From the NCBI GenBank assembly GCA_046153355.1, contig JBJXEY010000388.1:9342-73341 (forward strand): a DNA stretch of 64,000 nucleotides, given 5' to 3'. Below, piece by piece: positions 35,707 to 53,703 of the stretch. Origin of the DNA: Burkholderiales bacterium (lineage in GTDB: Bacteria; Pseudomonadota; Gammaproteobacteria; Burkholderiales; SG8-39). A program made the position numbers and the translations under genes. Each line of letters opens with the position of its first letter. The stretch's first letter is position 1. The notes under the pieces were generated by a model that was not told the origin of the DNA, did no database searches, and saw only the letters and a list, made by a program, of their open reading frames with translations.

Positions 35707-35783
35707 CCTATCGTTTTGCCACGCAACAAAGCCGGTATCCGGGACCAACGTACTTGTTGGCAAAACAATGCTTGTCGCGACAA

Positions 35784-36554: not shown

Positions 36555-37151
36555 ATGACAACCCCATACCAGCCTGGCGCAGCGAAAGCGCCCTTGTATG
36601 CGCTAAGGCGCGCTGATCGTGAACGCCTGAATGGACACACCGGTCGCGTGGTTTGGATCACCGGCCTCTCGGGCGCGGGAAAGTCGACCCTGGCCAATGC
36701 GCTGGAATTGGCCTTGCATGCGCAAGGCAAGCGCACCTACGTACTCGATGGAGACATCTTGCGTTCGGGGCTCAACAAAGACCTCGGTTTCGACGCCGCC
36801 AGCCGCGCCGAAAATATTCGCCGCGTCGCCGAAGTCGCGGCGATCATGATGGACGCGGGCATCATTGTCATCACCGCTTTCATCTCGCCATTTCGGCGCG
36901 AACGCGACATGGCACGCGAATTGATCGGCGACCGGGGGTTCATCGAAGTGTACGTAAACACGCCATTAGCGGTGTGTGAGCAACGCGACCCAAAGGGTCT
37001 CTACAAAAAAGCGCGCCAAGGGCAATTGCGCGACTTCACTGGCATCGACAGCCCCTATGAAGCTCCCCTACGGCCCGGGGTCAGCTTCGACTTTTCTGCG
37101 CAATGCTCGCAGGAGGCGGTGCAGGTTTTACTGGGGATGTTGGAAAAATAA
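36555..37151 (+). CDS. cysC: Adenylyl-sulfate kinase
   Basis: [28 protein letters not shown] and FTGIDSPYE motifs. Confidence 0.95.
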
Positions 37152-37253: not shown

Positions 37254-38864
37254 TCAAGTCCCTTCGTTCGGGTCGTGATACATCTCGCCGACTATCGCGG
37301 TGTATCCCGGTTTGCCGGTGGCCAGGTGATAACGCCCATCACGATCACGGCCCAGTTTGCCTTGCGCTCGCAGCCCATCCAGGGCCAAGGCCACTTCGCG
37401 ACCGTCGTCACTCCCGACCGCTTCGACAATCGCCGCATAGAACATCGGCCCCGCGGTCAAGGCTTCTTCAACGGTCTTGAATTTCGCCGGACCTTTGAAG
37501 AATTTGGCGGCACAACGCGTGAGCGGAATCTGGCCATCTTTGCCAAACGGCCGAGTGCAATCGAAGCCTGATTTCGCACCGGTGCGACGGCCTTGCAGCG
37601 ACGGGTCCATGGTCATTCCCATGATGCCTTGGATGATTACCATGTCGGTATCGGCCTGAAAGCGCGTGCCCAGGGCCCAGTTGCATTGCGAGTCGTTGCG
37701 GATGTCGATGTCTTCATCGAAGACATACACGTGTTTCAGCCGCATGATGCCGCCAAACAACGCGAGGATGGCTTGTTTACCTTCGCCGATCGAGCGCTGG
37801 CGCATGGAGACGCGCAGGGTGTTCGATCCGCCCGATGTTTCCACCTGGTATACATCGACGGGCTCGCGTATCGCTGCCTTCAAAATTTTCATGGCATCGG
37901 CCTCGATGCGCATGGCGCTGATCACCGCGCCATCGGATTGATCCAGATCGAAGGCAGAGCCGTGCAGGAAGGTTTGCCACATGGCGTCGCGGCGCATGGT
38001 GAGCGCGGTGCACGTGAACACCGGGTCCATGTGAATCGAGCCGTAGTAACCCATGTATTCGCCGTAGGGGCCTTCGGGTTCGACATAGCCACGCTCATCG
38101 AGGTAACCCTCCATGATCACTTCGGCATCCGCCGGCACGAGAATGTTGTTGGTCAAACTGCGCACCACTGGCACCACTTCATCGCGAAATGCACCAACCA
38201 GATTCAATTCCTCACCAGGACGGCGGGTGGTGGCGGCAAACATATCCAGCGGATGCGCGCCCAGGGTGAAGGTAATCGGTAGTTTTTCGCCACGTTTCAC
38301 GCAGGCCTGATAGATGCGTTTCAGATCCGAGGGCGCGGTGACGTTGGTGCCGGTCTGCGTTTTATTGCGCAGTGACAAACGGCGGCTACCGACGTTGGTG
38401 CGGCCCGTGGCCGGGTCGATGGTGTAGTCGATACCCGAGGAGATGTAGCAACTGCCGTCGAACTCGTGCTGCGGATGGAAGGGCAGCTTGGTTAGATCGA
38501 TTTGATCGCCGGTCAACACCACCTCATGCACCGGTGCTTCGTTGGAGGGCACCTCGACGAATTCGCCGGGATTGGCCATGCGTTTGTAATAGGCCTCGTT
38601 GAATTTCTCCGGCGTGGTACCAAATGCTGCGGCGATACGCCGGCGGCTACCGAGAACCTTGGCGGCGACTTCGTGCCCCTGTGGTCCGGCCTTTTTAAAT
38701 ACCAAACCCTTTTTGCTGGTCTCGATCATTTCGCTCATTTTGGTGAGAGGGGTGGGGGCGTTGATAACCTCCATTTCGCCCATCTCCACCAGGCGTTCCA
38801 CCAGCTTACGCAGACGGAATTTATCCATATCGATATTGGTGCTGCGCGTAACTTTCTTATCCAT
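37254..38864 (-). CDS. UbiD-family prFMN decarboxylase with C-terminal extension
   Basis: AGGAGAGG RBS; EGPYGEYMGY, VFDEDIDI, WALGTR and MDPS motifs. Confidence 0.88.
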   Translation of the reverse strand: MDKKVTRSTNIDMDKFRLRKLVERLVEMGEMEVINAPTPLTKMSEMIETSKKGLVFKKAGPQGHEVAAKVLGSRRRIAAAFGTTPEKFNEAYYKRMANPGEFVEVPSNEAPVHEVVLTGDQIDLTKLPFHPQHEFDGSCYISSGIDYTIDPATGRTNVGSRRLSLRNKTQTGTNVTAPSDLKRIYQACVKRGEKLPITFTLGAHPLDMFAATTRRPGEELNLVGAFRDEVVPVVRSLTNNILVPADAEVIMEGYLDERGYVEPEGPYGEYMGYYGSIHMDPVFTCTALTMRRDAMWQTFLHGSAFDLDQSDGAVISAMRIEADAMKILKAAIREPVDVYQVETSGGSNTLRVSMRQRSIGEGKQAILALFGGIMRLKHVYVFDEDIDIRNDSQCNWALGTRFQADTDMVIIQGIMGMTMDPSLQGRRTGAKSGFDCTRPFGKDGQIPLTRCAAKFFKGPAKFKTVEEALTAGPMFYAAIVEAVGSDDGREVALALDGLRAQGKLGRDRDGRYHLATGKPGYTAIVGEMYHDPNEGT

Positions 38865-38975
38865 GACCACCTCTCCTTTTTGGCGAATGTGCGATGTTCC
38901 CATCTATGCGGGCCGCTGTCGAGGGCAGCCGCACGAATGGCACGCGAGATTGAAAATGCTTGAAAAGCCGCTCCC

Positions 38976-39968
38976 CTACTCGATCTTCAGCTTGCCCTCG
39001 TTTTTCAGGCGTTCGTACAAGGCGCGGTCGCGCGCCAAAAACTGGGCAAAGGCTTCGGTGGATTCGCCGCTGGGGGCGGCGCGCTCCATGCCGTTATTGA
39101 ACAAAATCTTTTCCTGGAAGCCTGGGTCAAGCGTCACCTTCGATACCGAGCGGTTCCAACGATCAATAATTTCGCGCGGTGTACCCGCCTTGAAAAACAG
39201 CCCATACCAATTGCGAATTACGATATCCAGGCCTTCCTCTTTTACGGTGGGCAGGTCGGGATATCCGGCGACGCGTTTCTCGGAAATGATGGCCAGCACG
39301 CGGGTCTTTCCAGCCCTGGCTTGCGCCATCGCGGCGCCGGCGGCAAACACCGTGGCCTGCACTTCTCCCGAAATCACCGCCTGCAGGGCCTGCGGATTGC
39401 TCTTGTAAGGCACGTTGTAAAAATCGATGCCTTGATTGTGACGAAACCATTCGGCGTACAAGTTGCTCGTGGTGGGCGTGCCCGCGGTGCCAAAGGTGAT
39501 GGCGCCGGGTTTTGCCTTGGCAAGCGCGATCAATTCTTTCAATGTCTTAGCCGGGACAGCGGCATTGGCTACGAAGACGCTATTGAATTGCGCGATCATC
39601 ACCGCCGGCGCGAGATCTTTTTGCGGCTCGTAAGGAAGATCTTTCTGCAATACCGGATTCACCGTGATGGCGCCAGCGCTCACCATGAGGACGTTGTAAC
39701 CATCGGCCGAAGCACGCATCAGATTTTGCACCGCGACGATGCCATCGCCCTGCGGCACATTCTCGATGATGATGGGTTGGCCGAATTCCTGACGCAGCGG
39801 CTCGGAGAAGCCGCGCATGATGATGTCCGGCGGGCCGCCGGCGACACTGGCGACCATGACGCGCAACGGTTTGGAAGGGTAGGCCTGCGCCCAAGCACCT
39901 GTTTGAAGGGCTGCCTGGAGGGCGATACACGCAATGGGTGCTGCGCATAATTTCATAACTTTAATCAT
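38976..39968 (-). CDS. Bug/TctC substrate-binding protein
   Basis: Signal peptide; AGGPPD, ADGY and VPYK motifs. Confidence 0.92.
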   Translation of the reverse strand: MIKVMKLCAAPIACIALQAALQTGAWAQAYPSKPLRVMVASVAGGPPDIIMRGFSEPLRQEFGQPIIIENVPQGDGIVAVQNLMRASADGYNVLMVSAGAITVNPVLQKDLPYEPQKDLAPAVMIAQFNSVFVANAAVPAKTLKELIALAKAKPGAITFGTAGTPTTSNLYAEWFRHNQGIDFYNVPYKSNPQALQAVISGEVQATVFAAGAAMAQARAGKTRVLAIISEKRVAGYPDLPTVKEEGLDIVIRNWYGLFFKAGTPREIIDRWNRSVSKVTLDPGFQEKILFNNGMERAAPSGESTEAFAQFLARDRALYERLKNEGKLKIE

Positions 39969-40036
39969 AGAGACTCCTTTGTAGATGTGCATTGCTACGG
40001 AAATGCAATACTAAATTTAAATAATCCCGCAGTAGG

Positions 40037-41656
40037 TTAAGGCTTTCTGCTGTGACCGCGCGGCATCAAGGCCTGCCAGGGCGGCATCGCGCCTACCGGC
40101 ACTTCAATCAAAGCCGGCGAATTTGCGGCAATTGCCTGCGTCAGGTGTTGCGTCAATTGCGCTGGGGAACCCGCGCGCAAACCCAATATACCAAAGGACT
40201 TCGCCAAGCCCATGAAATCCGGATTGGTCAGGTCGCTGCCGTGATAGCGCCCATCAAAGGTCAACTTTTGCGTGCGCCGCACATTGCCGTAACCGCTGTC
40301 GTTGAACACGATGGCGATGCTGTTGATGCCATGCTGCGCCGCCGTGGCCATCTCCGGCATGGTGAACATGAATCCGCCATCCCCGCAGATCGCCACTACC
40401 GGACGATCCGGATGCGCCACCTTCACACCGAGCGAAGTGGCATAGCCATAACCCAGCGAATCCTGGAACCCCGGATAAATAATGCCGCGTGGATGGTAAG
40501 CGGGGAAACCGTTCCAACCGTAAAAGCCGATTTGCGTGATATCGGCAACGACGATGCCTTCATCGGGTAGGCCCGCGCGAATCGCATCCGACCAGGATTT
40601 TTGCGGTTCCAGCACCGAAATCTTTTTTAACGCCGCGGCTTTGACCGCCTCCAGTTCCACTTGGCGCGAGGCACGCGATTGCTCGGGAAGCGCCGCTTTG
40701 ATTGCCGCGAGTGCGCCGGCAGCGCTTGCAACGATGACCAAATCGGTGCGCGCCGGCTTTTCAATCTGCATGGCGTCGATGTCGATGCGTATGGTTTTCA
40801 TCCGCTCATCCGCACCCCAGGCGTGCCCTTCCATGTAACGCGTCCCCACCGCCAATACCGCATCCACTTCGGGCCATAACAAATTGCCGCCGATAACCGT
40901 CTGCGCAAGATAGTGACGGTCAGAAACCGTGCCGCGTGCGTGGCGCGTCATCATGATGGGCGCCTCCAGCGCCTCTGCCAGCGCGAGCAATTCTTTTTCC
41001 GCACCGAACGCACCACCGCCAGCAATGATCAAGGGCTTCTTCGCGCTGGCGAGCCACTGCGCCGCCTGCTCGATGGATTTCTGGTCCGGGACGGGATCGG
41101 GCAGGCGCGCACCGCGAACGCCCAGGGAAACTTCCGCATTTTCTTGCGTAACATCATCCGGCACTTGAAACAACACCGGGCCACAGCGGCCGCTCAATGC
41201 GAGGGTGACCGCCTCGTTGATACCCGATGAAACTTTGGACGCATGATCGGCCAGGATCTGACCCTTGGTGAGTGGCGCGAATACCGCCGACTGGTCCGAG
41301 AGCTCATGCAGAATCCCCAGGCCACGGCCGATATTGCGTCGGGAAATCTGCCCAGTGAGCGCCAGCACCGGCGTATTGCTCGCCTGCATGGTGCACACCG
41401 CGGTGCAGGTGTTGAGTATGCCGGGGCCGGGCACCACCAGGAATGCACCAAGCTTGCCGGTGGATTCCGCATAGCCATACGCCATATACGCCACGCCTTG
41501 CTCATGGCGCGAATTGATCACGCGGATGCTGCTGCGCTCGTGATACAGCGCATCGAAAATGTAGTCGAGCTGCACGCCGGGCAAGCCGAACAAAGTATCG
41601 ACGCCGTTGTGCTTCAAGGACTGCACAAAGGCCTGTGCGCCGGTCATAACTGCCAT
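40037..41656 (-). CDS. Thiamine pyrophosphate-dependent enzyme (acetolactate synthase large subunit-like)
   Basis: FGLPG, RHEQ and GDGGFMF...ND TPP motif. Confidence 0.9.
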   Translation of the reverse strand: MAVMTGAQAFVQSLKHNGVDTLFGLPGVQLDYIFDALYHERSSIRVINSRHEQGVAYMAYGYAESTGKLGAFLVVPGPGILNTCTAVCTMQASNTPVLALTGQISRRNIGRGLGILHELSDQSAVFAPLTKGQILADHASKVSSGINEAVTLALSGRCGPVLFQVPDDVTQENAEVSLGVRGARLPDPVPDQKSIEQAAQWLASAKKPLIIAGGGAFGAEKELLALAEALEAPIMMTRHARGTVSDRHYLAQTVIGGNLLWPEVDAVLAVGTRYMEGHAWGADERMKTIRIDIDAMQIEKPARTDLVIVASAAGALAAIKAALPEQSRASRQVELEAVKAAALKKISVLEPQKSWSDAIRAGLPDEGIVVADITQIGFYGWNGFPAYHPRGIIYPGFQDSLGYGYATSLGVKVAHPDRPVVAICGDGGFMFTMPEMATAAQHGINSIAIVFNDSGYGNVRRTQKLTFDGRYHGSDLTNPDFMGLAKSFGILGLRAGSPAQLTQHLTQAIAANSPALIEVPVGAMPPWQALMPRGHSRKP

Positions 41657-41789
41657 AGTAAAACTCCGAGGGTGGATGAATTGAGGGGCGTGAGTTTAAC
41701 CGCCCGGCGCGGCGCGAGTTCAATCGCGATAATGTTTAGAACCAAATGCCGGTATCGCGAAAACGATTCGATCCTGCCGCCAGCGGCGG

Positions 41790-42782
41790 CTATTGATCGA
41801 TCTTGACGCCGGACTTCACCACCAGCTCTTGCCCGCGAACCCTGTCCTGCGCGAGAAATACTTTGAAGTCTTCGATCGAATTGCCGATGGGCTCGAAGCC
41901 GCCACGCTTTAAGAACCTTTCGTGAAACCCGGGGGAATGAATCACCCGCGCTAGTTCGGCGTTGATTCTCTGCACCAACGCCCGCGGTGTTCCAGCCGGC
42001 GCGAACACCCCATAGAAGAGCTTGGTGTCGAATTTCGGCAGACCGACATCATCGAAGTTGGGAGTATCCGGAAGATTGGGATTGCGCGAGCTGCCGGGAA
42101 TCAAAATGGCCTTAGCCTGCCCGGTTTTGATGCGTTCGATGATATCCGGTGCGGCGACAAGATAAGTCAGATGCACGTCGCCGCGCTCAAAGGCAAGCAT
42201 CGCCGGCGCAGAACCCGCGAATGGGATGTGGGTCATGCTTGCCCCGGTTTTGTCTTTGATCCATTCAAGCAAAAGGTGCGAGTCGCCCCCAATTCCGAGG
42301 GAGGCATAATTGAGTTTTGCTGGATTCTGCTTGGAATACTCCACCAGCTCCTTGAAGGAATTCGCTGGCACATTGCGATTCATGATGAGCACGCCCTGCG
42401 CATAGACCGCGTTGGTGACCGGCTCGAAATCCTTTTCCGGGTCGTAGGAGAGTTTGTTATACAAAAACTGATTCAAGGACACCGAAGCGGAATTTAGCAG
42501 GCACAGGGTATAACCTTCGCGGTCGCCGCCTTTGCACGCGGTGGCGGCGATCACGGTATTCGCGCCGGGCTTGTGATCGAGCACGAAGCCCTGCCCGGTT
42601 TGCTCGCGGAATCCCTCGCCCAACGCGCGCGCCAGAATATCCACCGGGCCTCCTGGGGGAAACGGCACGATCATGCGTACCGGCTTTCTAGGATAGTCCT
42701 GCGCCAATGCAAGGTTTGCCAACGTGCCCAGAAAAATCACTCCTACCATCGACATCCAGATTGCTCGCGATTTCATGTCCAT
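41790..42782 (-). CDS. Bug/TctC substrate-binding protein
   Basis: AAGGAG RBS; FPPGGPVD and GDSHL motifs. Confidence 0.92.
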   Translation of the reverse strand: MDMKSRAIWMSMVGVIFLGTLANLALAQDYPRKPVRMIVPFPPGGPVDILARALGEGFREQTGQGFVLDHKPGANTVIAATACKGGDREGYTLCLLNSASVSLNQFLYNKLSYDPEKDFEPVTNAVYAQGVLIMNRNVPANSFKELVEYSKQNPAKLNYASLGIGGDSHLLLEWIKDKTGASMTHIPFAGSAPAMLAFERGDVHLTYLVAAPDIIERIKTGQAKAILIPGSSRNPNLPDTPNFDDVGLPKFDTKLFYGVFAPAGTPRALVQRINAELARVIHSPGFHERFLKRGGFEPIGNSIEDFKVFLAQDRVRGQELVVKSGVKIDQ

Positions 42783-42790
42783 GCTCCTTT

Positions 42791-43882
42791 TTAGCTGCCC
42801 GCAAGCCGTTCGGCGGTGCGTTCCGATATGCCCGGCCTCCCGGTAAGATTCATTTGTTCGACCATACGACGCATATGCTGTTCGGCGCGCAGCGGCGGAT
42901 AACGCTCGGGGTTCCCGGCGGTCTTGCAGGTATGCAGGCATTCAATCATTTCCATGCCGTTCGGATGGAAGAAAAATGCCAACGAAATTCTCGGCTGATC
43001 GGTCAAATTGATGGCCCGGTGCAGGCTCGAGGTGAACACATCGTTGGTCCACATGGCGAACATATCCGCGATATTGACCACCAGACTTCCCTCCAAGGGT
43101 GGCACCTCGATCCACTGCCCGGCCGCATTGCGCACTTGCAGGCCGCCCAACGCGTCCTGCGTCAACAAGGTGAACGCCCCGTAATCGGTATGCGGCGAGA
43201 ACCCCCATTTATTGCGCGCGCGCGCCTCGGGGGAGAGCGGTGAATAAAAATTGAAAAATAGCGAACATCCGGGATAGCGAAACGCCCGATCGAAATAGGT
43301 TTCGGGCAACTCAAGGCTCATTGCGAAGGCTTGAACCAGTTGCTGGCCGATTTCGACGCGCTTTTGCAAATGCGATTTCATCAAAGCTTCGAATCCCGGC
43401 AACACGGTATCGTCGGGCCATTGCGAGTTGCCGGCGCTGTAACGGCCTTGCAAGGGTTCACCCGCAAAAATCTCACGGCCCATGCCAAAGCGCTCCTTGG
43501 CGTCTGCCGCATCGAGCGCGGCCGCGTCCGGATTGACCCCGCCGGTACGGATGTATCCCTGCCTCACGGAGGAGTTGTCGGTGCGGGTTTTCATCTTTTC
43601 ATCGAGTGGCAGCGCGAAAAACTTCAAACCCATGCCATGCACCAGGTCAATTTCGCTCTGGCTCAATCCGTGGCCCAGCAAATAAAAAAATCCAATGTCG
43701 ATGCAGGCTTGACGTATTTGCTCGGCCACCGCTAGGCGCTGCCGCGGGGTTCCCTTCACGAACTGGGCGAGGTCAACGACAGGCAGGGTCGACAGCGCCG
43801 CGCGCTCGACGCCTGCGCCTTGGTAGCGCATGTCAAATGCCGCGTAATCCTGTAGATCCTGGCTATCGAGCGGTCGGACCAT
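42791..43882 (-). CDS. 2-oxoglutarate/Fe(II) oxygenase, isopenicillin N synthase family
   Basis: GFFYL, HTDYGAFTLL, GGLQV and HR...R.S motifs; start uncertain. Confidence 0.9.
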   Translation of the reverse strand: MVRPLDSQDLQDYAAFDMRYQGAGVERAALSTLPVVDLAQFVKGTPRQRLAVAEQIRQACIDIGFFYLLGHGLSQSEIDLVHGMGLKFFALPLDEKMKTRTDNSSVRQGYIRTGGVNPDAAALDAADAKERFGMGREIFAGEPLQGRYSAGNSQWPDDTVLPGFEALMKSHLQKRVEIGQQLVQAFAMSLELPETYFDRAFRYPGCSLFFNFYSPLSPEARARNKWGFSPHTDYGAFTLLTQDALGGLQVRNAAGQWIEVPPLEGSLVVNIADMFAMWTNDVFTSSLHRAINLTDQPRISLAFFFHPNGMEMIECLHTCKTAGNPERYPPLRAEQHMRRMVEQMNLTGRPGISERTAERLAGS

Positions 43883-43978
43883 CCCAATATCCCCCTGAAA
43901 CTGAAAAATACTTGCCATTTTTCGCACAACACGACAACGGAAACGCCGCGCCACGGTTAAATCGGGTAACTCGACCTC

Positions 43979-46114
43979 TCACCCGGATTTTAATTCGCGA
44001 AGCTGCATGATGACTTTCTCGAAGTGCGTCCAGGCAAGCGCCTGCCCCTCGCTAAATGCAACCAATTTGGACTCTTCGCACACCCCTTTGATGTCAGCGC
44101 CCGAAAAACCCTCGCTGCCCGCGGCTAGGCGCACAGCGAGTTCCGCGCGAACGGGTTCGGCCAAGATCGCACCCTGGAGAAACAAGCGCGCGATCTCGCC
44201 GCGCTCAGCCTCATCAGGCATGGGAACATAAATTCGCGTGCCCAATCTGCCAGGGCGCAGCACCGCGCCATCCACCAGATCGATGCGATTGGTGGCGCCG
44301 ATGACCAGAATATTCGCCACCGCCTTGATGCCATCCAATTCCGAGAGAATCTGATTGACCACGCGCTCAGTAGTACGCGAGCCCGAATCTATGCCGCGCT
44401 TGGGGGCGATGGCATCGAGTTGATCGAAAAAAATAATACACGGCGACAACTGTCGCGCCACGCGGAAGATGTGGCGAATCGCGGCTTCCGACTCGCCCAG
44501 CCATTTGCCGAAAATTTCGGGGCCATCCACGGCGAGAAAGTTCACGCCCGCTTCATTGGCAATGGCCTTCGCGATCATGGTTTTGCCGGTACCCGATGGC
44601 CCATGTAGCAAAACACCACGCGGCGGCGTAATGCCAGCTTTCTCCAATTCGCCAGGGTTCGTCAGCGAGCGAACAATCAACACCTGCAGTTCGCGCTTAA
44701 TACGTTCGAGGCCGCCGATTTCGCTCCATTTCACATCCGGTATGGCGATAAACGATTCGCGAATCGCCGAGGGGCGAATGGTGGATAAGGCACCGTTGAA
44801 ATCCTCGATCTCCACGGTAATGAATTCGGATTTGATATTGAAGGCATCCAAATGGTTCTCAAGCATCGAGGTGCTGCGGCGCAAGGCATTTAAACCCGCC
44901 TCTCGGCATAACTCCATGATGTCGGCGCCGACAAAACCATGCGTGGCGGCGGCGATTTGCGGCAGGTAATCGGCGGCGTCATTCGCCAGCGGCATGTCGC
45001 GCGTGTGGATGCGAAGGATTTCTAGGCGCCCGTCGACTGAGGGCGAATCGATAAACACTTCGCGATCGAAGCGCCCCGGCCGGCGCATGGCGGTATCCAG
45101 GGCGTCGATGCGGTTGGTGGTGCCGATGATCACCACGCCCTCCACCTTGGTGAGGCCATCCATTAAGGAAAGTAATTGCGTCACCGAGCGCACGTCGCTT
45201 TGCGAACCGACGTGTTCTCGGTTGGGAGCGATGGCATCCAGCTCATCGATAAAAATGATCGACGGGGCGTGATGCGCCGCTTCGTTGAAAATTTTTCGCA
45301 GGTTGGCCTCGGTCTCGCCCTGCATGGTGCCCACCAACGCGGGGCCGTTGATATAGAAAAAATTCGCGTCGATCTCGTTGGCAATCGCCTTGGTGAGATG
45401 CGTCTTGCCGCTGCCCGGCGGCCCGTAGAGAACGATACCTTTGGGCGCTTGAATACCCAGTTGGCGGTACACATGCGGGCATTGCAGTGGCAACTGAATC
45501 AGCTCGCGGATGAGTTTGATCTCCGGCCCGACGCCGCCGACATCCTCGAATGTGATATCGAAAACGCCGTGGTCGTGGCCTTCCTCGGGCAATTCAATCT
45601 CAATTTTGGTATCGGCGGTGATAATTCCTGGGCCACCGGGCAGCCTCACTACCCGATAAATGGTGCCCGCTCTGGAGTGATGAAAGGTGGAAAACAGGAT
45701 CGACCCCTGCATCACCGGCGTGGCGTTCTCGACGAAATTTTCCTTCAAGTGCTGCAACAGATGATGCGCCTCGGAAACATCGATGGGTGCGGTGAGCACC
45801 ACGCGCTCAGCCGGCCCGAGATCGACCTTCTGCACGCGCACTTCCTCCGACAATTTGCATTTGATCGATTGGCGCAACAAACGATCCAGACGTATCGACT
45901 TCCCACCCTTGTCCGCCTCGATAGGCGGCCCGACCCGGCCCAGGGTCTCGCGCCCCATGGGCGATTCGATCGACACCACATCGCCCTCGGCGATATCGGC
46001 TGATGCCATGAGTTCGGGGTCGAGGTTCACCATGCACTGCGAGGAGGTGGTGAGCTCCGACTGAACACGATTGACGCGCGCGCGTACGTACTTCAATGCC
46101 TTAGGCTCATTCAT
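43979..46114 (-). CDS. CDC48/p97/VAT-like double-ring AAA+ ATPase
   Basis: N-domain; D1 GPPGSGKT/FIDELD/RRPGRFD; D2 GPSGTGKT/FFDQLD/RPGRL; linker PSAIRE..P.V.W..IGG. Confidence 0.92.
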   Translation of the reverse strand: MNEPKALKYVRARVNRVQSELTTSSQCMVNLDPELMASADIAEGDVVSIESPMGRETLGRVGPPIEADKGGKSIRLDRLLRQSIKCKLSEEVRVQKVDLGPAERVVLTAPIDVSEAHHLLQHLKENFVENATPVMQGSILFSTFHHSRAGTIYRVVRLPGGPGIITADTKIEIELPEEGHDHGVFDITFEDVGGVGPEIKLIRELIQLPLQCPHVYRQLGIQAPKGIVLYGPPGSGKTHLTKAIANEIDANFFYINGPALVGTMQGETEANLRKIFNEAAHHAPSIIFIDELDAIAPNREHVGSQSDVRSVTQLLSLMDGLTKVEGVVIIGTTNRIDALDTAMRRPGRFDREVFIDSPSVDGRLEILRIHTRDMPLANDAADYLPQIAAATHGFVGADIMELCREAGLNALRRSTSMLENHLDAFNIKSEFITVEIEDFNGALSTIRPSAIRESFIAIPDVKWSEIGGLERIKRELQVLIVRSLTNPGELEKAGITPPRGVLLHGPSGTGKTMIAKAIANEAGVNFLAVDGPEIFGKWLGESEAAIRHIFRVARQLSPCIIFFDQLDAIAPKRGIDSGSRTTERVVNQILSELDGIKAVANILVIGATNRIDLVDGAVLRPGRLGTRIYVPMPDEAERGEIARLFLQGAILAEPVRAELAVRLAAGSEGFSGADIKGVCEESKLVAFSEGQALAWTHFEKVIMQLRELKSG

Positions 46115-46123
46115 GCACCAGTC

Positions 46124-46630
46124 CTACTTCTTTTTGAAGTCCGGCGAGTCTTCGATTTCCTCGTAGCTCGAGCCTTTGTCCAGGCCCAGCGCCTCGGTGA
46201 AATTGGGCTCGATGGCGGCGATTTGCGCCTCCTCGTCGTCGCTGTCGTTAAAGTGCTGGTAGGTCACGCCGTCTTTTCGCAGCGGCAGTTGAATCAACTC
46301 GCCCGCGACCCAGGAGTAGCGCACGCCATCGAGAATGGTGTGTCCCTTGCCTTTCCAGAAATAAAAAATCTTGCCCCCCGGATGGTGCTGCCTGCCGCTT
46401 TTGCTGCCTGGGGGAATGTGCTGCACGTAAAAAATCTTGGTATTCATCGATACATCGGTCAGATTCGGATGCATGTACCACTGCATCAATCCGTGGCGAT
46501 TGCTCTCCACCGGAATGTCATTGCCGCGAAGGATGAATATTCCTTTTCTGCGCTCGCGTTGCTTATCCCTTAACTCCATCAATTCGTCGAATAGGTTTCG
46601 CTTGGCGAGTTGTTCTTTACGTTCACTCAT
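46124..46630 (-). CDS. Cupin-domain protein (degenerate metal site)
   Basis: SGRQHHPGG...G.G.T..DG.RY.W..G....LP....V.YQHFN. Confidence 0.8.
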   Translation of the reverse strand: MSERKEQLAKRNLFDELMELRDKQRERRKGIFILRGNDIPVESNRHGLMQWYMHPNLTDVSMNTKIFYVQHIPPGSKSGRQHHPGGKIFYFWKGKGHTILDGVRYSWVAGELIQLPLRKDGVTYQHFNDSDDEEAQIAAIEPNFTEALGLDKGSSYEEIEDSPDFKKK

Positions 46631-46684
46631 TTCATTCTCCCTGCATCGGCTTGAGCATAAATCGGTTGGTGTGTTTGATTTGCG

Positions 46685-47209
46685 TTACAACTGGTCGCCA
46701 AATTTTTTCTGGTAATCCAGAAGCACTTCCAACTGCACCAGTTCGCTCGAGGACTCCTGCCACTGCGGCAAGTAGATAAACGCGATCCAGCGCGTCACCA
46801 CGCCCTCGTTGTTGAAGTGCTGATGCTCGACACCGCCCGGCTTGATGGGCAGAAGTATCAGATCTCCCGCGCTCCACTCGTAGCGCTCTCCATCGCAAAT
46901 CGTCCAACCCGAACCCTCCAGCACGAAGATCACCAAGCCGCCCTGGTGACGGTGCTTGCCGCTTTGCTTCTTGATATTGGAGATGAATACGCGCCAATCC
47001 TGCAACACCGTGGGAAAGGATTCGGTGGCAAGAAAATACTCCGCGTGCGACTGGCGTGACATCTGCACGACGACGTCCGATTTCTTGATGTGAATCTTGC
47101 CCGCCTGCTGCCGATCGTGAAAATCAGCTAGTTTCTTTAAAAACTGCTCGTACAGCGCTCCGGGCAAGGGCCCGCGCTCGCGGGTTTTGGTTCTTTCCAT
47201 TTCAGCCAT
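46685..47209 (-). CDS. Cupin-domain protein (3-His site)
   Basis: SGKHRHQGG...EGSG...DGERYEW.AGD...LP...VEHQHFN. Confidence 0.85.
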   Translation of the reverse strand: MAEMERTKTRERGPLPGALYEQFLKKLADFHDRQQAGKIHIKKSDVVVQMSRQSHAEYFLATESFPTVLQDWRVFISNIKKQSGKHRHQGGLVIFVLEGSGWTICDGERYEWSAGDLILLPIKPGGVEHQHFNNEGVVTRWIAFIYLPQWQESSSELVQLEVLLDYQKKFGDQL

Positions 47210-47284
47210 GACTCACCACCTTTCGATTTTTCACCATCGACAATTCGTCGGACATGCCGCCAACATTTTTGCGCGCAAACAATT

Positions 47285-47296
47285 GGGGTACGTCCC
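47285..47296. repeat. GGGGTACGTCCC REP-like motif, copy 1
   Basis: Identical 12-mer at 48306-48317; AT-rich flanks. Confidence 0.6.
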
Positions 47297-47304
47297 TGTT
47301 TTAT

Positions 47305-48282
47305 TTATTTCTGCAAGCCGACTTTTTGCACGATTTCACTCCAATAGGGAATTTCCGCGCGGATGCGTTCGCCCAGTTCGTCGGGCGTACTGGCCGCCAG
47401 CTCCAGGCTATCTGCCGCCGCGCGATCTCTTGCTGCATTGCTGCGAAGGATGACGGCGACTTCCTGATTCAAGCGATCGACAATCGGCCGCGGCGTTTTA
47501 GCCGGCAGCACCAGGCCCATCCAAGTGGTGACATTGAAGTTCGGCACGCCGGCTTCCACCATGGTGGGCAAGGTGGGGATCGCCGGTGAGCGCTTCGGCC
47601 CGGTGTTCGCCAACGCGCGAACCTTGTTGGCGCGGATATTGGGGATGGCCGCGCCGCCGCCAGAGAACATCAAGTCCACCCTGCCCGCCAACAAATCCAC
47701 CACAGCGCCACCGGTGCCCTTGTAGGGAACGTGAAGGATATCGACAGCGGTGTTCATCTTGAATAGTTCACCGGCCAGATGCAGCGTGGTGCCAGTGCCA
47801 ATCGATGCGTAGGTGAGTTTGCCCGGTTGCGATTTCGCCAGTGCTACCAGATCCTGTACCGAATTGACCGGCACGCCGGGATGTGTCACCAGCCACAAAG
47901 GAGAAAAAAACAACAACGACACCGGCGCAAAATCGCGGCGCGAGTCGTAAGGAAGATCGCGGCGCATGGCGTTATTGAGCACCAAGCCCGAAGCGGTGGC
48001 GGCGAGCATGGTGTAGCCATCCGGCGTCGCTTTGGCCACGGCTTCCGCGCCGATGGCTTCGCTCGCGCCAGGACGGTTGATCACCACGATGGATTGCCCC
48101 AGGCGTTCGGTGAGCCCTTGCGTCACCACGCGGGCGAAGTTATCCATGAGGGCGCCGGCATCAGTGGGCACGATGACTTGTATTGAGCGACTCGGATAGG
48201 TTGCGGGGCTTTGCGCCAATGCGGTTTTAAGTAGCAAGGCGCAAAGCAACTGTGGTGCCAGCATGCGAATAGTGAACTGCAA
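47305..48282 (-). CDS. Bug/TctC substrate-binding protein
   Basis: AQSPATYPSR, NRPGA, GTTLHL and HVPYKG motifs. Confidence 0.92.
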   Translation of the reverse strand: MQFTIRMLAPQLLCALLLKTALAQSPATYPSRSIQVIVPTDAGALMDNFARVVTQGLTERLGQSIVVINRPGASEAIGAEAVAKATPDGYTMLAATASGLVLNNAMRRDLPYDSRRDFAPVSLLFFSPLWLVTHPGVPVNSVQDLVALAKSQPGKLTYASIGTGTTLHLAGELFKMNTAVDILHVPYKGTGGAVVDLLAGRVDLMFSGGGAAIPNIRANKVRALANTGPKRSPAIPTLPTMVEAGVPNFNVTTWMGLVLPAKTPRPIVDRLNQEVAVILRSNAARDRAAADSLELAASTPDELGERIRAEIPYWSEIVQKVGLQK

Positions 48283-48305
48283 TCGATCATCCCTTCCAAT
48301 TAAAT

Positions 48306-48318
48306 GGGGTACGTCCCC
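48306..48318. repeat. GGGGTACGTCCCC REP-like motif, copy 2
   Basis: Imperfect palindrome GGGG-TACGT-CCCC at the amidohydrolase stop codon. Confidence 0.6.
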
Positions 48319-49166
48319 TAATTACCGAAGCCGTAAAGCTTTGCCGGATTTTCTACCAGTATTTTTTCAAGCAATCCCTGATCGGGAACCAGGCGATAAA
48401 GCAATTCTAAAAGATCCCCGTCGTTGGGCACCTCAGGCTTGGCGTACAAAAGATGCGGCCAGTCGCTCGCCCACAGCGCGCGCGAAGGTGCGACGGCAAG
48501 CGCCGCTCGTACGTAAGGCGCGACATCACTCCATGGCGGGCCCGTTAGCGAACGTCTGTCGCCATTGGACAAAAGAATCCACCAGTTATCGCGTGTAAGC
48601 ATCTCCAATACGAAACGAAACCCGAGTTGATCAAGACCGAGAGCGAAATCCGGCGTGCCTAAATGATCAATCACCACGGGAATATCCAGCGCACGCAAGG
48701 ATTGCGCATGCCGCAGCAGATCCTCCGCGCTGCCGCCAAGTTTTACCTGCCACCCAAGCGGTCGGATGCGCTCAATGCAGCGGTTGACCATGGCCATGTC
48801 GGTGGCGCCGGAAAGTTGAAAGCGGATACCACGCACGCCCGCCCGATTCAATCGCGCGAGTTCATCATCGCTAACCGAATCATCGATCGCCGCCACACCG
48901 CGATAATTGGCTTGTCCTACAAGACTATCGGATAGCAATCGATTGTCTGTGCCGTAGACCGCGGGCTGCACGATCACCCCGCGAGAAATGCCAAGCGTAT
49001 CGTGCATACGCCGCAAGTCTGCAAAATTTGCCGCAGGCGGCTCGTAGGTCCGCTGCAACTTGGGCGGATATTTCACCGTGTCGCCGAACACGTGAAAATG
49101 GCAGTCGCAACTACCCGGTGGCGGCGGGCGGGACGGCAAGCGGGTTTCGCGGATGTGGGAAAGCAT
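48318..49166 (-). CDS. Amidohydrolase_2 family, 2-pyrone-4,6-dicarboxylate lactonase (LigI)-like
   Basis: DCHFHVFG, VQP..YGTDN, GVRGIRF, IDHLG and WASDWPH motifs. Confidence 0.85.
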   Translation of the reverse strand: MLSHIRETRLPSRPPPPGSCDCHFHVFGDTVKYPPKLQRTYEPPAANFADLRRMHDTLGISRGVIVQPAVYGTDNRLLSDSLVGQANYRGVAAIDDSVSDDELARLNRAGVRGIRFQLSGATDMAMVNRCIERIRPLGWQVKLGGSAEDLLRHAQSLRALDIPVVIDHLGTPDFALGLDQLGFRFVLEMLTRDNWWILLSNGDRRSLTGPPWSDVAPYVRAALAVAPSRALWASDWPHLLYAKPEVPNDGDLLELLYRLVPDQGLLEKILVENPAKLYGFGN

Positions 49167-49238
49167 GCGACGAGTGTAGCATTCGCATTTTGCGACGGTG
49201 GAGGTGACGTTCGCAAAATCGACCGTGGAGGAAGCAGC

Positions 49239-50255
49239 ATGAATGCGCGAGACCAGAACACACCATTGAGCGACACGCACGATACGCCGGATAAATCATT
49301 GCATCCAGTCAATGTTGCTTTTGCCGACTACGACCGCACCCGGCCACTAATTGATGGGCGCGTACAGGCGCCGGGAATCAAACTCTCCATCGACACCAAA
49401 TTCATCGCCGAGTTCTGCGCCCGTCCCGTCTATGAGGAATACGACGCGGCGGAAATGTCATTTTCCTGGTTCGTCGCGGCGCGCGCCCGCGGTGAACCCG
49501 TCATCGCGCTACCCGTATTTCCTTTGCGCATGCCGGTGTTGGCCTATGTGCTATGCCGCAACGGTGCATCTTTTACTAAGCCCTCCGATCTGATCGGTAA
49601 GCGAATTGGCGTGGCGCGTTACCGCTACACGGTCAACCTGTGGCTGCGCGGCATTTTCAAGGAGCACTACGGACTTGCACCCGAGCAAGTGACTTGGGTG
49701 ACCAGCGGCGAAGAAGACGCAGGCTATGTACCACCTCAGGGCATACACATTGAATTGAATGCAGGGCGGCTCTCCACGCAGGCGTTGCTCGCCAGAGGCG
49801 AAGTCGATGCCGTGCTGCTCGCGCGCCTGCCTGATGATTACCTGCGCGGTGAAACCGATTTTCGCCGCCTGTTCCCCGATGCGCGCGCCGAGATGCGAGC
49901 CTATTACGCTAAAACCGGCATCGTCCCGATTACCCATGTCATGGTAATGGGCCAGGCTCTGTATGACCGTGAACCGTGGATCGCCGCGAACCTCACCCAA
50001 GCATTCATCGATGCGCAGCGTATGTGTGACGATTTTTATCTGGACTGCTCTAAACACCTGTCGTATCCCGAGGCGGTGTTTTTCATGGAGGAACAGCGCG
50101 AGACCTACGGCGCCTATCCCTGGTCCCACGGCATCGATGGCAACCGCCAAAATATCGATACCTTCGTGCGTTATGCGCAGGAACAGCAATACATACCCCG
50201 TGTTCTGACCATCGAGGAAATGTTCGCAACCAATACCTTGGCATTGAAGCGATAG
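49239..50255 (+). CDS. 4,5-dihydroxyphthalate decarboxylase (OphC/Pht5)-like protein
   Basis: DYDRTRPLIDG, D.AEMS, LPVFP.R, W.RG, TG..PI.H and PW..G motifs; GGAGG RBS. Confidence 0.8.
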   Translation: MNARDQNTPLSDTHDTPDKSLHPVNVAFADYDRTRPLIDGRVQAPGIKLSIDTKFIAEFCARPVYEEYDAAEMSFSWFVAARARGEPVIALPVFPLRMPVLAYVLCRNGASFTKPSDLIGKRIGVARYRYTVNLWLRGIFKEHYGLAPEQVTWVTSGEEDAGYVPPQGIHIELNAGRLSTQALLARGEVDAVLLARLPDDYLRGETDFRRLFPDARAEMRAYYAKTGIVPITHVMVMGQALYDREPWIAANLTQAFIDAQRMCDDFYLDCSKHLSYPEAVFFMEEQRETYGAYPWSHGIDGNRQNIDTFVRYAQEQQYIPRVLTIEEMFATNTLALKR

Positions 50256-50261
50256 CCGGCC

Positions 50262-51221
50262 ATGCGCGCTACCTTCCGGTTAATTTTTATGGTTGCCGCT
50301 CTGGCGCTTAGTGTGTCCGCACCGGCGCAGGAATTCCCCAGCAAACCGATACGCATCATCGTCCCCTACCCGCCCGGTGGCGGTACTGACAGAACCGGTC
50401 GCCTGCTTGCCGAGCGATTCCAGGCGAAATGGGGTCAATCGGTATTGGTCGAGAACCGCTCTGGTGCCGGCGGCGCCGGAGCGGAATACGCGGCCAAGGC
50501 TGCACCGGATGGCTATACCCTGTTGTTCGCCGCGCAGGCGCAGTTCGTCATCGTGCAGGCACTCTACGACAAGCTCGGCTACGACCCCGATGCCATGGTG
50601 CCAATCTCCACCATCACCACCAGCCCCAATGTGCTGGTGGTGAATCCGAAAATTCCCGTGGAGAGCCTGGCAAGGTTGATCAGCTTCGCCAAGGAGAATC
50701 CGGGCAAGTTGAACTACGCCTCCACTGGCAGTGGCAGCTCGCAGCATCTGGCCGCGGAATTATTCAAATCGATGGCGGGCCTGGATATGCTGCACATCCC
50801 CTACAAAGGCACCGCACCGGCGATCACCGATCTGGTGGCGGGCCATGTGCAACTGATGTTCATGGAGATTAGCAACGCCATCACCCAGGTGAAAGCGGGA
50901 AAGCTGCGCGTGATCGCAGTGGGTGGTGAAAAGCGCCACGCCGCTTTTCCGGGTACACCCGCGCTAGTCGAAACGCTGCCCGGGTTTGTTTCCATGCAGT
51001 GGACCGGCCTTGCCGCCCCTGCGGGCACGCCGAGTGTAATCGCCGAGAAAATCTGGACCGCGACTGTCGAAGCCTTAAAACATCCCGACACCGCGCAGCG
51101 CATCCGCGAACTGAGCCTTGAAACCGTGGGCAGCACGCCGGCGGAAACCACCGCCTTCTGGAGGCAGGAGCGTGACCGTTGGGGCAAGGTGATCCGCGCA
51201 ACGGGCGCGAAAGCCGATTGA
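50262..51221 (+). CDS. Bug/TctC substrate-binding protein
   Basis: YPPGGGTD, GSSQHL and HIPYKG motifs. Confidence 0.95.
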   Translation: MRATFRLIFMVAALALSVSAPAQEFPSKPIRIIVPYPPGGGTDRTGRLLAERFQAKWGQSVLVENRSGAGGAGAEYAAKAAPDGYTLLFAAQAQFVIVQALYDKLGYDPDAMVPISTITTSPNVLVVNPKIPVESLARLISFAKENPGKLNYASTGSGSSQHLAAELFKSMAGLDMLHIPYKGTAPAITDLVAGHVQLMFMEISNAITQVKAGKLRVIAVGGEKRHAAFPGTPALVETLPGFVSMQWTGLAAPAGTPSVIAEKIWTATVEALKHPDTAQRIRELSLETVGSTPAETTAFWRQERDRWGKVIRATGAKAD

Positions 51222-51263
51222 ACTCCTCGCGGCAACCGCAATACAAACAATAGGAAACCCAAC

Positions 51264-52721
51264 ATGGCCACCGTCGCCTATAAAGACCTTCGCGAATTCA
51301 TCGAACTCGCGAAACAAATCGACAGCTACAAAATCATCGAAGGCGCCGATTGGAATGAGGAAATCGGCACGCTCACCGAAGTCACCTGCGAGCACTTTCA
51401 AGATCCGCCGCTGTTGATATTCGACAAGATTAAGGACTACCCGCCGGGCTATCGAGTGGTGGGTACGCTGATTACTTCGCACAAACGTTGGGCGCTGGCA
51501 CTGGGCTTGCCGCTGGATTGCACGCGCCTGGAGACGGCGCGCAATGCCACGCGAAAAATCAAAGCAAGCTCGCCGATCCCGCCGCGCGAGGTCAAGACCG
51601 GGCCGGTGATGGAAAACATCATGACCGGCGATGATATTGATCTTTTAAAATTTCCCGTGCCGCTGTTTCACAAGGGCGACGGCGGGCGCTACATCGGCAC
51701 CGGTTGCACCGTGATCAACAAAGATCCGGAATCGGGCTACGTCAACATGGGCACCTACCGCCTGCAGGTGCATGAAAAAAATCTCATGGGTCTTTGGATC
51801 AGCCCTGGGCAGCAGGGGCGCATCATCGCCCAGCGTTACTGGGAACGCGGCGAGAGCTGCCCCATCGTCTGCACCTTCGGCATCGACCCGCTGACTTTCA
51901 TGTCTTCCTACACCATCGTGCCCTGGGGAAAGTCGGAGCTGGATTTTGCCGGCGGCATGCGCGGCGAACCCATCGACGTGATCAAGGGGCCGCTCACCGG
52001 GTTGCCGATTCCCGCTTATGCGGAGATCGCCATCGAAGGCGAAGTGCCGCCACCCAGCGTGGAAAAACGCGCCGAAGGCCCGTTCGGTGAATGGCCGGGT
52101 TATTACTCGGGCGGCACCCAAGGCACCGGCGAAGACCAACCGGTGATCCGCGTGAAGGCCATCTATCACCGCAATGATCCAATCCTACATAACCAGACGC
52201 CCAATTGGCCGGGGGCGGTGCATACCGCCATCGACTTTCGCGCCGGGTTACTGTGGGATCAGTTGGAGTCAGCCGGCGTGCCCGGCATCAAGGGCGTCTA
52301 CATGTTCAATCCGTATTTCGTGGTGGTCTCGATCCAACAGCAATATGCCGGCCACGCCAAGCAGGCCGGACACGCCGTCATCGGCTGCGCCGCCGGTGCG
52401 CGCCAGGGCCGCTACACCGTGGTGGTGGATGAAGACATCGACCCGACCAAATTAAAAGAGGTGCTGTGGGCTATCTGGACGCGCGCCGATCCGGCAGAAG
52501 ATATCGATGCCATCGCCGGTTGTTGGAACACACCGCTCGATCCGCGCATGCCGCCGGATAAGCGCAACGCGCGCGATTACACCACCGGCCGCTGCATCAT
52601 TTATGCGGTGCGGCCCTTCGCCTGGCGCGATAAATTCCCCAAGACCAGCCGCTCCGAGCCAGAACTCAGGCGCCGCATCATGGAAAAATACAAAGATATG
52701 TTCAACTTTCCCTCGGTATAG
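51264..52721 (+). CDS. UbiD-family prFMN decarboxylase
   Basis: DLREFI, NMGTYR, EGPFGEWPGY, VVDEDID and LDP motifs. Confidence 0.92.
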   Translation: MATVAYKDLREFIELAKQIDSYKIIEGADWNEEIGTLTEVTCEHFQDPPLLIFDKIKDYPPGYRVVGTLITSHKRWALALGLPLDCTRLETARNATRKIKASSPIPPREVKTGPVMENIMTGDDIDLLKFPVPLFHKGDGGRYIGTGCTVINKDPESGYVNMGTYRLQVHEKNLMGLWISPGQQGRIIAQRYWERGESCPIVCTFGIDPLTFMSSYTIVPWGKSELDFAGGMRGEPIDVIKGPLTGLPIPAYAEIAIEGEVPPPSVEKRAEGPFGEWPGYYSGGTQGTGEDQPVIRVKAIYHRNDPILHNQTPNWPGAVHTAIDFRAGLLWDQLESAGVPGIKGVYMFNPYFVVVSIQQQYAGHAKQAGHAVIGCAAGARQGRYTVVVDEDIDPTKLKEVLWAIWTRADPAEDIDAIAGCWNTPLDPRMPPDKRNARDYTTGRCIIYAVRPFAWRDKFPKTSRSEPELRRRIMEKYKDMFNFPSV

Positions 52722-52737
52722 GTTCAACGAAAAACTC

Positions 52738-53703
52738 ATGTCATCGCAAACATTTCGCTTGTTATTCGTTGCGGGCACTTTGTTGCTCTCGACCTCGCTT
52801 GGCGCGCAGGACTACCCCAGCAAACCCATCAAGATCATCATCCCGGTGCCACCCGGCGCCGCGGTCGAACGCATGGCACGCCTAGTGGGTGATCGTTTGT
52901 CATCCGAATGGAATCAGCCGGTGGTGGTGGAGAGCCGCTCAGGCGCCGCCGGCAATATCGGCGCGGAGTTCTTCGCCAAATCCGCGCCCGATGGCTACAC
53001 CCTGATGGTGACCGCGGCCTCGGTGCTGGTGATTAACAAGAGTCTATATTCGAAGTTGACCTACAACCCAGATAACTTCGTGCCGGTAACCATCATCGCA
53101 TCGAGCCCCAATGTGCTTATGATGCATCCCAAACCGGGTATAGATAATATTCGGGAGCTTATGTCCTACGCCAAGAGTAACCCGGAAAAGTTAAACTTTG
53201 GCTCCGGCGGCAGCGGCAGCACCGCGCATCTGACCGCGGAATTGTTTACCTCCATGGCAGGCATCAAGCTCACCCACATCCCCTACAAAGGCAGCGCCCC
53301 CGCCATCACCGATTTGCTTGGCGGCCAAGTGGATATGGTGTTCATCGAACTGGGCTCGGCCCTGCCGCATGTGCGCTCAGGGAAGTTGCGCGCCCTCGCC
53401 GTCGGCAGCGAGAAACGCGCGCCGGTTTTGCCAGATGTACCCGCGATAGCCGAAGTGCTGCCCGGTTACGTTTCATCAGTGTGGTTCGGCATGGTCGCGC
53501 CGCCGGGAACGCCGGCTGCGATTGCCGGAAAACTTTCATCCTCGATTGCCGAGGGCGTAAAACAACCAGCGTTCCAAAAGCGCTTATCGGAACTTGGCGT
53601 CGACGGACGCGGCAGCACGCCCGCCGAGATGGCCTTGTTCATGAAGCAGGAGAGTGATCGCTGGGGCAAGGTGATTAAGAGTGCGGGGATTGTGCCGGAG
53701 TAA
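52738..53703 (+). CDS. Bug/TctC substrate-binding protein
   Basis: AQDYPSKP, GSTAHL and HIPYKG motifs. Confidence 0.94.
   Translation: MSSQTFRLLFVAGTLLLSTSLGAQDYPSKPIKIIIPVPPGAAVERMARLVGDRLSSEWNQPVVVESRSGAAGNIGAEFFAKSAPDGYTLMVTAASVLVINKSLYSKLTYNPDNFVPVTIIASSPNVLMMHPKPGIDNIRELMSYAKSNPEKLNFGSGGSGSTAHLTAELFTSMAGIKLTHIPYKGSAPAITDLLGGQVDMVFIELGSALPHVRSGKLRALAVGSEKRAPVLPDVPAIAEVLPGYVSSVWFGMVAPPGTPAAIAGKLSSSIAEGVKQPAFQKRLSELGVDGRGSTPAEMALFMKQESDRWGKVIKSAGIVPE

Follow-up and report, generated by a model that had tools for sequence, protein, structure and literature searches.

In this report, we analyzed a stretch of 64,000 nucleotides from a Burkholderiales bacterium (hereafter the window; GenBank assembly GCA_046153355.1, contig JBJXEY010000388.1, positions 9,342 to 73,341), which encodes an N-D1-D2 ATPase resembling Cdc48/p97 and VAT and, beside it, two small proteins that we designate cupin A and cupin B. 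Our main finding is twofold. First, its sequence places the ATPase among type-II AAA+ proteins resembling Cdc48/VAT, in a large bacterial clade without a name of its own, which appears to have kept since early in its history a glutamine in place of the catalytic glutamate of the second ring (D2). We call these proteins DQ-type, after the Asp-Gln pair of their D2 Walker B motif, and relatives with an Asp-Glu pair DE-type. Second, genes of the clade show a strong linkage to a cupin pair with a metal site, and those of its DE-type relatives show none.

Exchanging the Walker B glutamate for glutamine is the standard laboratory way to freeze a AAA+ ring; here the same exchange is fixed naturally across many bacterial phyla, so that the contribution of a non-hydrolysing ring to a tandem AAA+ motor could be studied in a natural system. 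The cupin linkage, which spans lineages, points to a specific client or cofactor, and few bacterial Cdc48 homologs have a known partner of this kind. Carriers include culturable members of Modestobacter (Modestobacter muralis DSM 100205) and Blastococcus (Blastococcus saxobsidens) as well as Paenibacillus abyssi, so that the function is directly testable. No paper on a natural D2 glutamine in bacterial Cdc48-like proteins, or on a pairing of Cdc48 with cupins, was found in the open-access papers searched; the supplementary accessions of PMC6017811 might include members of the clade.

Glutamine at the D2 Walker B motif

The original prediction, made from the letters of the window, had described a full N-D1-D2 protein, and this layout was upheld by Pfam, an AlphaFold2 model and a Foldseek alignment. 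Pfam found CDC48_N (38.7 bits for a cut-off of 35.1), two AAA and two AAA_lid_3 stretches, that is, the Cdc48/p97/VAT arrangement of an N-terminal double-psi barrel followed by two AAA modules with lids, which the model also displays. The model, built from a 40-sequence alignment, has a mean predicted local distance difference test (pLDDT) value of 84 and falls below 50 only at residues 1-4 and 178-183 (the GHDHG linker); it aligned with p97/Cdc48 chains over at least 710 columns (E ~1e-70). By sequence, the best match of solved structure is VAT (PDB 5g4f; E 1.6e-178, 598 bits). The motifs and histidine stretches quoted in the prediction, the ELKSG end and the CAA codon at 44420-44422 all read as it had given them.

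VAT and p97/Cdc48 share with the ATPase the N-D1-D2 type-II classic AAA layout and the D2 pore loop K-W-x-G. Unlike them, the ATPase has Gln for Glu in D2, so that the Walker B pair is Asp-Glu in D1 and Asp-Gln in D2 where the family has Asp-Glu in both and D2 as its main hydrolytic motor; it also has a D1 loop of the form G-T-x-x-G-E-T-E, lacks an HbYX tail (hydrophobic-Tyr-X end), comes without a detectable 20S proteasome, has a dedicated cupin neighbour, and scores 685.6 bits with the NCBIfam CDC48 model TIGR01243, under its cut-off of 802.65. It is closest in sequence to VAT/Cdc48, yet it fails the curated score and lacks the D2 catalytic residue.

The glutamine is widespread. A collection of 5.8 billion proteins was searched, and among the 120 best matches (query included) 117 have D-Q at the D2 Walker B position; the exceptions are P0065 and two proteins of about 1000 residues, P0015 and P0018. 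That the exchange marks a clade, a point which the original prediction had put forward for testing, is borne out by this count, which leaves no room for close homologs that all carry Asp-Glu, and by the single tree branch described below. Named sources of the matches are Paenibacillus, Syntrophales, Candidatus Methylomirabilis, Burkholderiales, Actinomycetota and Alphaproteobacteria, and the databases call the DQ proteins 'AAA family ATPase' or 'transitional endoplasmic reticulum ATPase'. When homologs of at most 830 residues were reduced to representatives of 50%-identity clusters (97 besides the query), 16 were DQ, 10 had another non-DE pair (DH, DN, DD, DP, DT, EQ, EG or ED occur) and the rest were DE. 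Of 213 proteins aligned together, each 600-830 residues long, 132 are DQ, 72 DE and 9 other.

A quick, unrooted FastTree phylogeny was calculated from 74 hand-picked rows, 44 from the group with a GxxxGETE loop and 30 DE-type representatives of at most 830 residues, longer or fused proteins being excluded. One branch (support 96) splits it into 43 rows, made of 42 non-DE proteins plus the DE protein P0065, and 31 rows, made of 28 DE proteins and three sporadic others. Since P0065 is nested within the DQ side, its glutamate is probably a reversal. The topology is consistent with the catalytic glutamate having been lost once, early on, and with later drift at that position, as would be expected if the position no longer serves catalysis. 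Inside the clade, the former catalytic position varies in P0065, P0128, P0143, P0225, P0246 and P0270 (DE reversal, DH, EQ, DD, EG, DP).

An isolated glutamine might also stem from a private mutation, from misassembly or from gene decay, and the window genome is indeed a fragmented assembly (566 contigs, 95% complete, 7.5% contamination). However, the glutamine is common to nearly all of the best homologs, the reading frame is intact and the remainder of D2 is highly conserved, so that the probability of this explanation is negligible; a sequencing error or pseudogene is ruled out by the homolog comparison. Public sequencing agrees: four DNA contig runs from one study matched the window, with patchy and low coverage, and one of their contigs (X4 record 21, 44326-44511) spans the CAA codon with 0 differences. 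The reads that the original prediction had asked for over this codon are thus matched by one contig, which does not count as independent support because the run may be the window's own source sample. No RNA run covering the window was listed among the public sequencing runs.

Outside this position, the catalytic and ATP-binding motifs of the double ring are retained. An alignment of 40 chosen sequences shows no variation at D1 residues D290, E291, N334, R345 and R348, and the D2 rings of the clade keep Walker A (GPxGtGKT), sensor-1 (TNR) and the Arg fingers (LRPGRxG). D1 has all the residues that ATP hydrolysis requires, and D2 retains its ATP-binding and interface residues without the catalytic base. 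In engineered p97, the Walker B Glu-to-Gln change in D2, at the same motif position, yields a substrate trap; in the ATPase, the change is natural, ancestral to the clade and under purifying selection alongside the ATP-binding residues.

The two pore loops differ in their conservation. In the 132 DQ proteins, that of D2 is nearly frozen (Lys537 in 126, Trp538 in all, Leu539 in 128, Gly540 in 131). The D1 frame is G-T-x-x-G-E-T-E in the clade, against mostly S-K-[YF]-Y-G-E-S-E in DE-type relatives. The original prediction had asked whether a D1 loop devoid of aromatics is a defining trait, but 109 of the 132 carry an aromatic at position 264 or 265, most commonly as GT[LM]YGETE, and the query is among the 23 that do not. 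The notion of a hydrolysing ring lacking its gripping aromatic therefore fits the query and scattered relatives, not the family. Nor is such a loop unusual in itself, as the D1 pore loops of eukaryotic p97/Cdc48 also lack aromatics.

As for the histidine clusters, likewise raised there as candidate clade markers, His117 and His122 are clade-conserved (92% each in the clade); among the other positions in the quoted stretches, conservation is 65% for His145, 60% for His118, 14% for His146 and about 10% for His180/His182. Two further histidines just ahead of the D1 Walker B strand, His281 (91%) and His282 (94%), belong with the conserved ones. In DE-type proteins, histidine does not exceed 7% at any of these positions. 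A subclade from Actinomycetota and Chloroflexota (L008-L013) entirely lacks the AHHLxxH motif. Other clade-specific residues of the N-domain are R78, K85, D112, F144 and Y153.

The C-termini are unconserved across the clade and none of the 132 DQ proteins ends in an HbYX tail, as the original prediction had noted for the query. These features bear on whether the ATPase could be a proteasome-activating unfoldase like archaeal Cdc48/VAT or the actinobacterial Cpa. NCBIfam models of proteasome-activating nucleotidases do match it, at 481 bits, below their cut-off of 500 and over single AAA modules. However, the only PF00227 match in the window genome is HslV, and a proteasome-coupled role is therefore unlikely; no 20S subunit was found with PF00227 in this genome, although its absence is not proven because the assembly is 95% complete. 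Cpa itself is a bacterial Cdc48-like double ring, described in PMC6017811 as having strict D2 motifs and a degenerate D1, interacting with the 20S proteasome and lying in a psd-pssA operon; the same paper mentions that the rare Cdc48 homologs of other bacteria group with archaeal ones. Compared with this account, our ATPase is a mirror image, its ring degeneracy being the opposite one and its neighbours being cupins instead of psd-pssA, and it does not fall within Cpa. Taken together, this makes the proteasome-activating role very improbable, in agreement with what had first been predicted.

Cupin neighbours of the DQ-type ATPases

The metagenome scan that supplied most loci searched with generic D1 patterns, and most of the proteins it retrieved were DE-type; the loci were for this reason split into a DQ group of 17 (the window, L001-L013, L021, L026 and L027) and a DE group of 80, of which 57 carry at least 600 bp on both flanks. 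Using hidden Markov models of cupin A and cupin B (E <=1e-3), an open reading frame (ORF) of either family was detected in 16 of the 17 DQ loci and in 0/80 DE loci. A script placed the cupin within 300 bp of the ATPase in 14 DQ loci. L021 is the fifteenth, with a bicupin immediately before the ATPase that was missed because an over-extended ORF call for the ATPase overlapped it. In L011, the bicupin lies 1.3 kb upstream, with a gene for a Rieske LigXa-like oxygenase in between.

Three gene arrangements occur. Cupins A and B are encoded separately in A-B-ATPase and B-ATPase-A; in the third, a fused bicupin of about 365 residues lies either upstream of the ATPase or, in four related loci of Geodermatophilaceae and actinobacteria, convergent downstream of it. 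An all-against-all comparison of the ORFs around the relatives revealed the cupin pair as the one recurring neighbour. In a Pfam tally of 87 neighbour ORFs, Cupin_2 had 14 members, TctC 4 and every other family at most 3; the tally covered 13 DQ loci, with ORFs selected by a weighting on third-codon-position GC content (GC3), and excluded the window, L021, and L010 and L012 as kin of L009 and L013. Linked loci span Alpha- and Betaproteobacteria, Desulfobacterales, Syntrophales, Chloroflexota and Actinomycetota, and the remaining neighbours differ from locus to locus while the cupin persists.

In the Syntrophales contig L007 (2854-5865), two UbiD-family genes directly follow the DQ ATPase. UbiD genes are near the ATPase in 2/17 DQ loci, this one and the window, which may be chance.

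Cupin A matches the metal-binding cupin of gentisate/salicylate 1,2-dioxygenases (PDB 3bu7, E 1.1e-12), and an AraC_binding Pfam match also falls on it. Both cupins are nevertheless far under the family cut-offs: with TIGR02272 (gentisate 1,2-dioxygenase), cupin A scores 24.1 bits and cupin B 19.6 bits against 442, and the AminoSalDhMabB model gives 25 bits against 650. Names are of little help: none of 567 same-length homologs of cupin A is informatively named, the database label being 'cupin domain-containing protein', and the nearest clusters of the ESM Atlas are all 'hypothetical' or generic cupins.

The conservation of cupin A centres on H86, H88, H129 and H131, each present in at least 99% of 111 homologs; Q89 and E128 are also kept, the six residues together ranging from 97 to 100%. 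Cupin B keeps the fold and has lost the HxH metal motif (QHH here; LLH or LKF in relatives). The pair shows the pattern of gentisate dioxygenases, in which one half has His ligands in cupin motifs 1 and 2 and the other is degenerate. Cupins A and B look like a split bicupin with one predicted metal site. The likeness to gentisate and salicylate dioxygenases thus extends to histidines in two cupin motifs and to one active and one degenerate half; the differences, besides the low scores, are that the pair is often encoded by two genes and is found in contigs of anaerobes. Gentisate and salicylate dioxygenases have a three-His site, against the four conserved His of cupin A.

All 60 longer homologs of cupin A are bicupins (306-406 residues); a fusion of cupin and AAA was found in none of these 60, which is weak evidence, 440 candidates having been scored.

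Adjacency could in principle be a by-product of co-transfer on a catabolic island, with the ATPase acting, uncoupled from the cupins, as a general bacterial Cdc48/VAT-like unfoldase or disaggregase with a slow D2. The strong overall similarity to VAT would suit such a role, as would the surroundings of the window copy (two UbiD genes, Amidohydro_2, an HpcH aldolase, a TPP enzyme, a 2OG-Fe oxygenase and six TctC). However, the linkage persists across six bacterial groups while every other neighbour changes, DE-type relatives are never linked, and the paralog in the window genome lies in a unit of just bicupin, ATPase and TctC. We therefore regard this explanation as improbable.

Candidate functions of the ATPase-cupin module

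The reading we favour, to which we give about equal credence and doubt, is that the ATPase would be a D1-driven remodeller or activase of the co-encoded cupin metalloprotein, its D2 ring acting as an ATP-locked clamp. Because the gene is almost always encoded beside a metal-binding cupin, it would be a dedicated helper of the cupin and not a partner of the proteasome. In this mechanism, D1 would drive the hexamer; D2 would bind ATP and hydrolyse little or none of it, forming a permanently ATP-bound assembly ring and a static clamp on the substrate, with an NSF-like division of labour. The cupin metalloprotein would be the dedicated client, and the ATPase would open or partly unfold it so that metal is loaded, exchanged or repaired, or a dead-end ligand released. 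Such a role would be that of an 'enzyme activase', as distinct from proteasome-coupled unfolding. The original prediction had named an activase or metal-insertion factor among possible roles, and the adjacent cupin pair now gives this idea a concrete candidate client.

Two known types of machine resemble this proposal. Rubisco activases (Rca, CbbX) and other AAA+ activases or metallochaperones devote a ring to one co-encoded enzyme; the resemblance is by analogy only. These proteins have a single ring or fall in the MoxR clade, and we know of none with a cupin client. The other is Sec18/NSF, in which, according to PMC12440825, D1 is active and D2 is inactive and serves oligomerisation; it shares with our proposal a D1 motor and a catalytically inactive D2 assembly ring. 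NSF is not the closest relative in sequence and acts on SNARE bundles via SNAP adaptors, and for our ATPase the inactivity of D2 is a prediction.

If the activase reading is true, cupin enzymes would join Rubisco and some metalloenzymes among the targets of AAA+ enzyme activases. In a bolder and quite tentative version, this would be the first Cdc48-family 'enzyme activase', in which an ATP-locked D2 clamps while D1 pulls on a bicupin with a non-haem metal, for metal insertion, exchange or repair, and His117/His122 together with His281/His282 form the site of metal hand-over. In that case, a whole cupin enzyme family in aromatic or carboxylate catabolism, anaerobes included, would depend on ATP-driven maturation.

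Several points weigh against the activase reading. The function is deduced from gene linkage and motif logic; the DQ loci are not phylogenetically independent, several being kin, and the tree rows were of our choosing. Rings with a Glu-to-Gln exchange can retain slow hydrolysis, and D2 may for this reason not be fully dead. The D2 pore loop is more conserved than that of D1, and D2, not D1, could be the main substrate-contacting ring. Linkage is also incomplete: at L004, the retrieved DNA, 1.4 kb upstream and 8 kb downstream of the ATPase, contains no cupin, the bicupin of the four related actinobacterial loci is convergent and not co-oriented with the ATPase, and the window genome holds six cupin A+B units for two DQ ATPases, so that cupins can exist without an adjacent ATPase. 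Finally, the module of DQ ATPase and cupin is present in Syntrophales and Desulfobacterales contigs, where an O2-dependent dioxygenase is an unlikely client.

The main rival reverses the relation between the partners: the cupin pair would be a ligand-sensing adaptor or cofactor, comparable to the p97 cofactors that bind the N-domain, and, upon a small-molecule or metal cue, would bring other proteins to a Cdc48-like segregase as substrates or control their entry. Cupin domains are often sensors, cupin A has its AraC_binding match, and the N-domain displays clade-specific residues (R78, K85, D112, H117, H122, F144 and Y153); the wider gene context, moreover, differs between loci. Six cupin units for two ATPases would also suit many adaptors per motor, but this excess is compatible with a client as well as with an adaptor. 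On the other hand, the neighbourhood (the tally of 87 ORFs) holds no conserved candidate for a third-party substrate or protease, the four His of cupin A show the conservation of a catalytic or metal centre, and the closest solved relatives of cupin A are ring-cleaving dioxygenases, not sensors. We hold the adaptor to be possible rather than probable.

A structure prediction for a complex of the N-domain (residues 1-190) with cupin A and cupin B gave no answer (scores of 0.00 and 0.00, controls not folded) and has no weight for or against binding.

A role as an anti-phage defence ATPase (IetA/IteA and others) is not supported: the PADLOC matches are generic and cover single AAA modules only, and PADLOC gave no match to the cupins. 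With NCBIfam, the IteA model scores 214.8 bits on the ATPase against a cut-off of 510.

The window genome and its catabolic cluster

The features of the ATPase, the cupins and the surrounding genes are collected in Table 1.

Table 1. Features of the ATPase gene, the cupin genes and the neighbouring cluster (positions in the window)
Feature	Position	Strand	Residues	Remarks
Cdc48/VAT-like N-D1-D2 AAA+ ATPase (P0001), coding sequence	43979..46114	-	711 in all	DQ type; ATG start
N-domain and linker	45560..46114	-	1-185	CDC48_N double-psi barrel at 25-98
D1 AAA module	44735..45559	-	186-460	Fully equipped, as judged from motifs
D2 AAA module	43982..44734	-	461-711	
EAHHLLQH (N-domain)	45749-45772	-	115-122	Holds clade-specific His117/His122
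TFHHSR			143-148	
EEGHDHG linker			177-183	Poorly conserved, modelled as disordered
D1 Walker A GPPGSGKT			231-238	
D1 pore loop GTMQGETE	45308-45331	-	262-269	
His281/His282 (D1)	45269-45274	-	281-282	Clade-specific
D1 Walker B IIFIDELD	45236-45259	-	286-293	
D1 sensor-1 and Arg fingers			N334; R345/R348	
D2 Walker A GPSGTGKT			505-512	Intact
D2 pore loop GKWLGESE	44486-44509	-	536-543	
D2 Walker B CIIFFDQLD	44414-44440	-	559-567	
Gln565 codon CAA	44420-44422	-	565	
D2 sensor-1 TNR, Arg fingers LRPGRLG				Retained
C-terminus ELKSG				
Cupin B	46124..46630	-	168 in all	Ends 9 nt upstream of ATPase start
Cupin A	46685..47209	-	174 in all	
UbiD-family decarboxylase	37254-38903			
UbiD-family decarboxylase	51264-52721			
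Amidohydro_2 gene	48318-49280			
HpcH/HpaI aldolase	53706-54545			
TPP enzyme	40037-41656			
Six TctC (Bug-family) solute-binding genes	38976-53703			Within 15 kb
2OG-Fe(II) oxygenase ORF as listed	42791-43954			Overlaps next ORF by ~150 nt
Downstream TctC ORF as listed	41790-42941			Overlaps previous ORF by ~150 nt
ORF	49002-50255	+		Overlaps Amidohydro_2 gene

Where ORFs overlap, the true starts probably lie further in than those of the longest ORFs. From its gene content, the cluster looks like a catabolic island for a carboxylated, probably aromatic, substrate. Apart from TctC, which recurs in a few loci, and UbiD, which is present in L007, its genes are not conserved beside the ATPase elsewhere.

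The second DQ ATPase of the window genome is 50% identical to the first, has the same DQ pair, scores 555.6 bits with TIGR01243 and is the one found in the bicupin-ATPase-TctC unit. The five further cupin A+B units of this genome, pairs or fused, have no adjacent ATPase; they lie on contigs C444, C275, C42, C151 and C116 (loci L107-L109, L111 and L112), some at the ends of short contigs, and the match on C151 contains one in-frame TAG.

In samples of 301 genomes from the order and 401 from the phylum, only the window genome yielded the cupin A family, and the other Cdc48-like matches, 2 in the order sample and 16 in the phylum sample, are all of DE type. The latter (L115-L130, mostly family f102) form a distinct bacterial Cdc48-like group, present in 16 of 400 other genomes of the phylum sample. 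Their ORFs are 765-1045 residues long, with a D1 pore loop GS[AG]YGESE in 14/16 (not L117 and L125) and D-E at the D2 Walker B position in 16/16; the cupin A family was not found in their genomes.

Two further genes flank the cluster and appear unrelated to it: one encodes a protein of 785 residues with TPR and GT41 glycosyltransferase domains (33406-35763), and the other an APS kinase (36555-37151).

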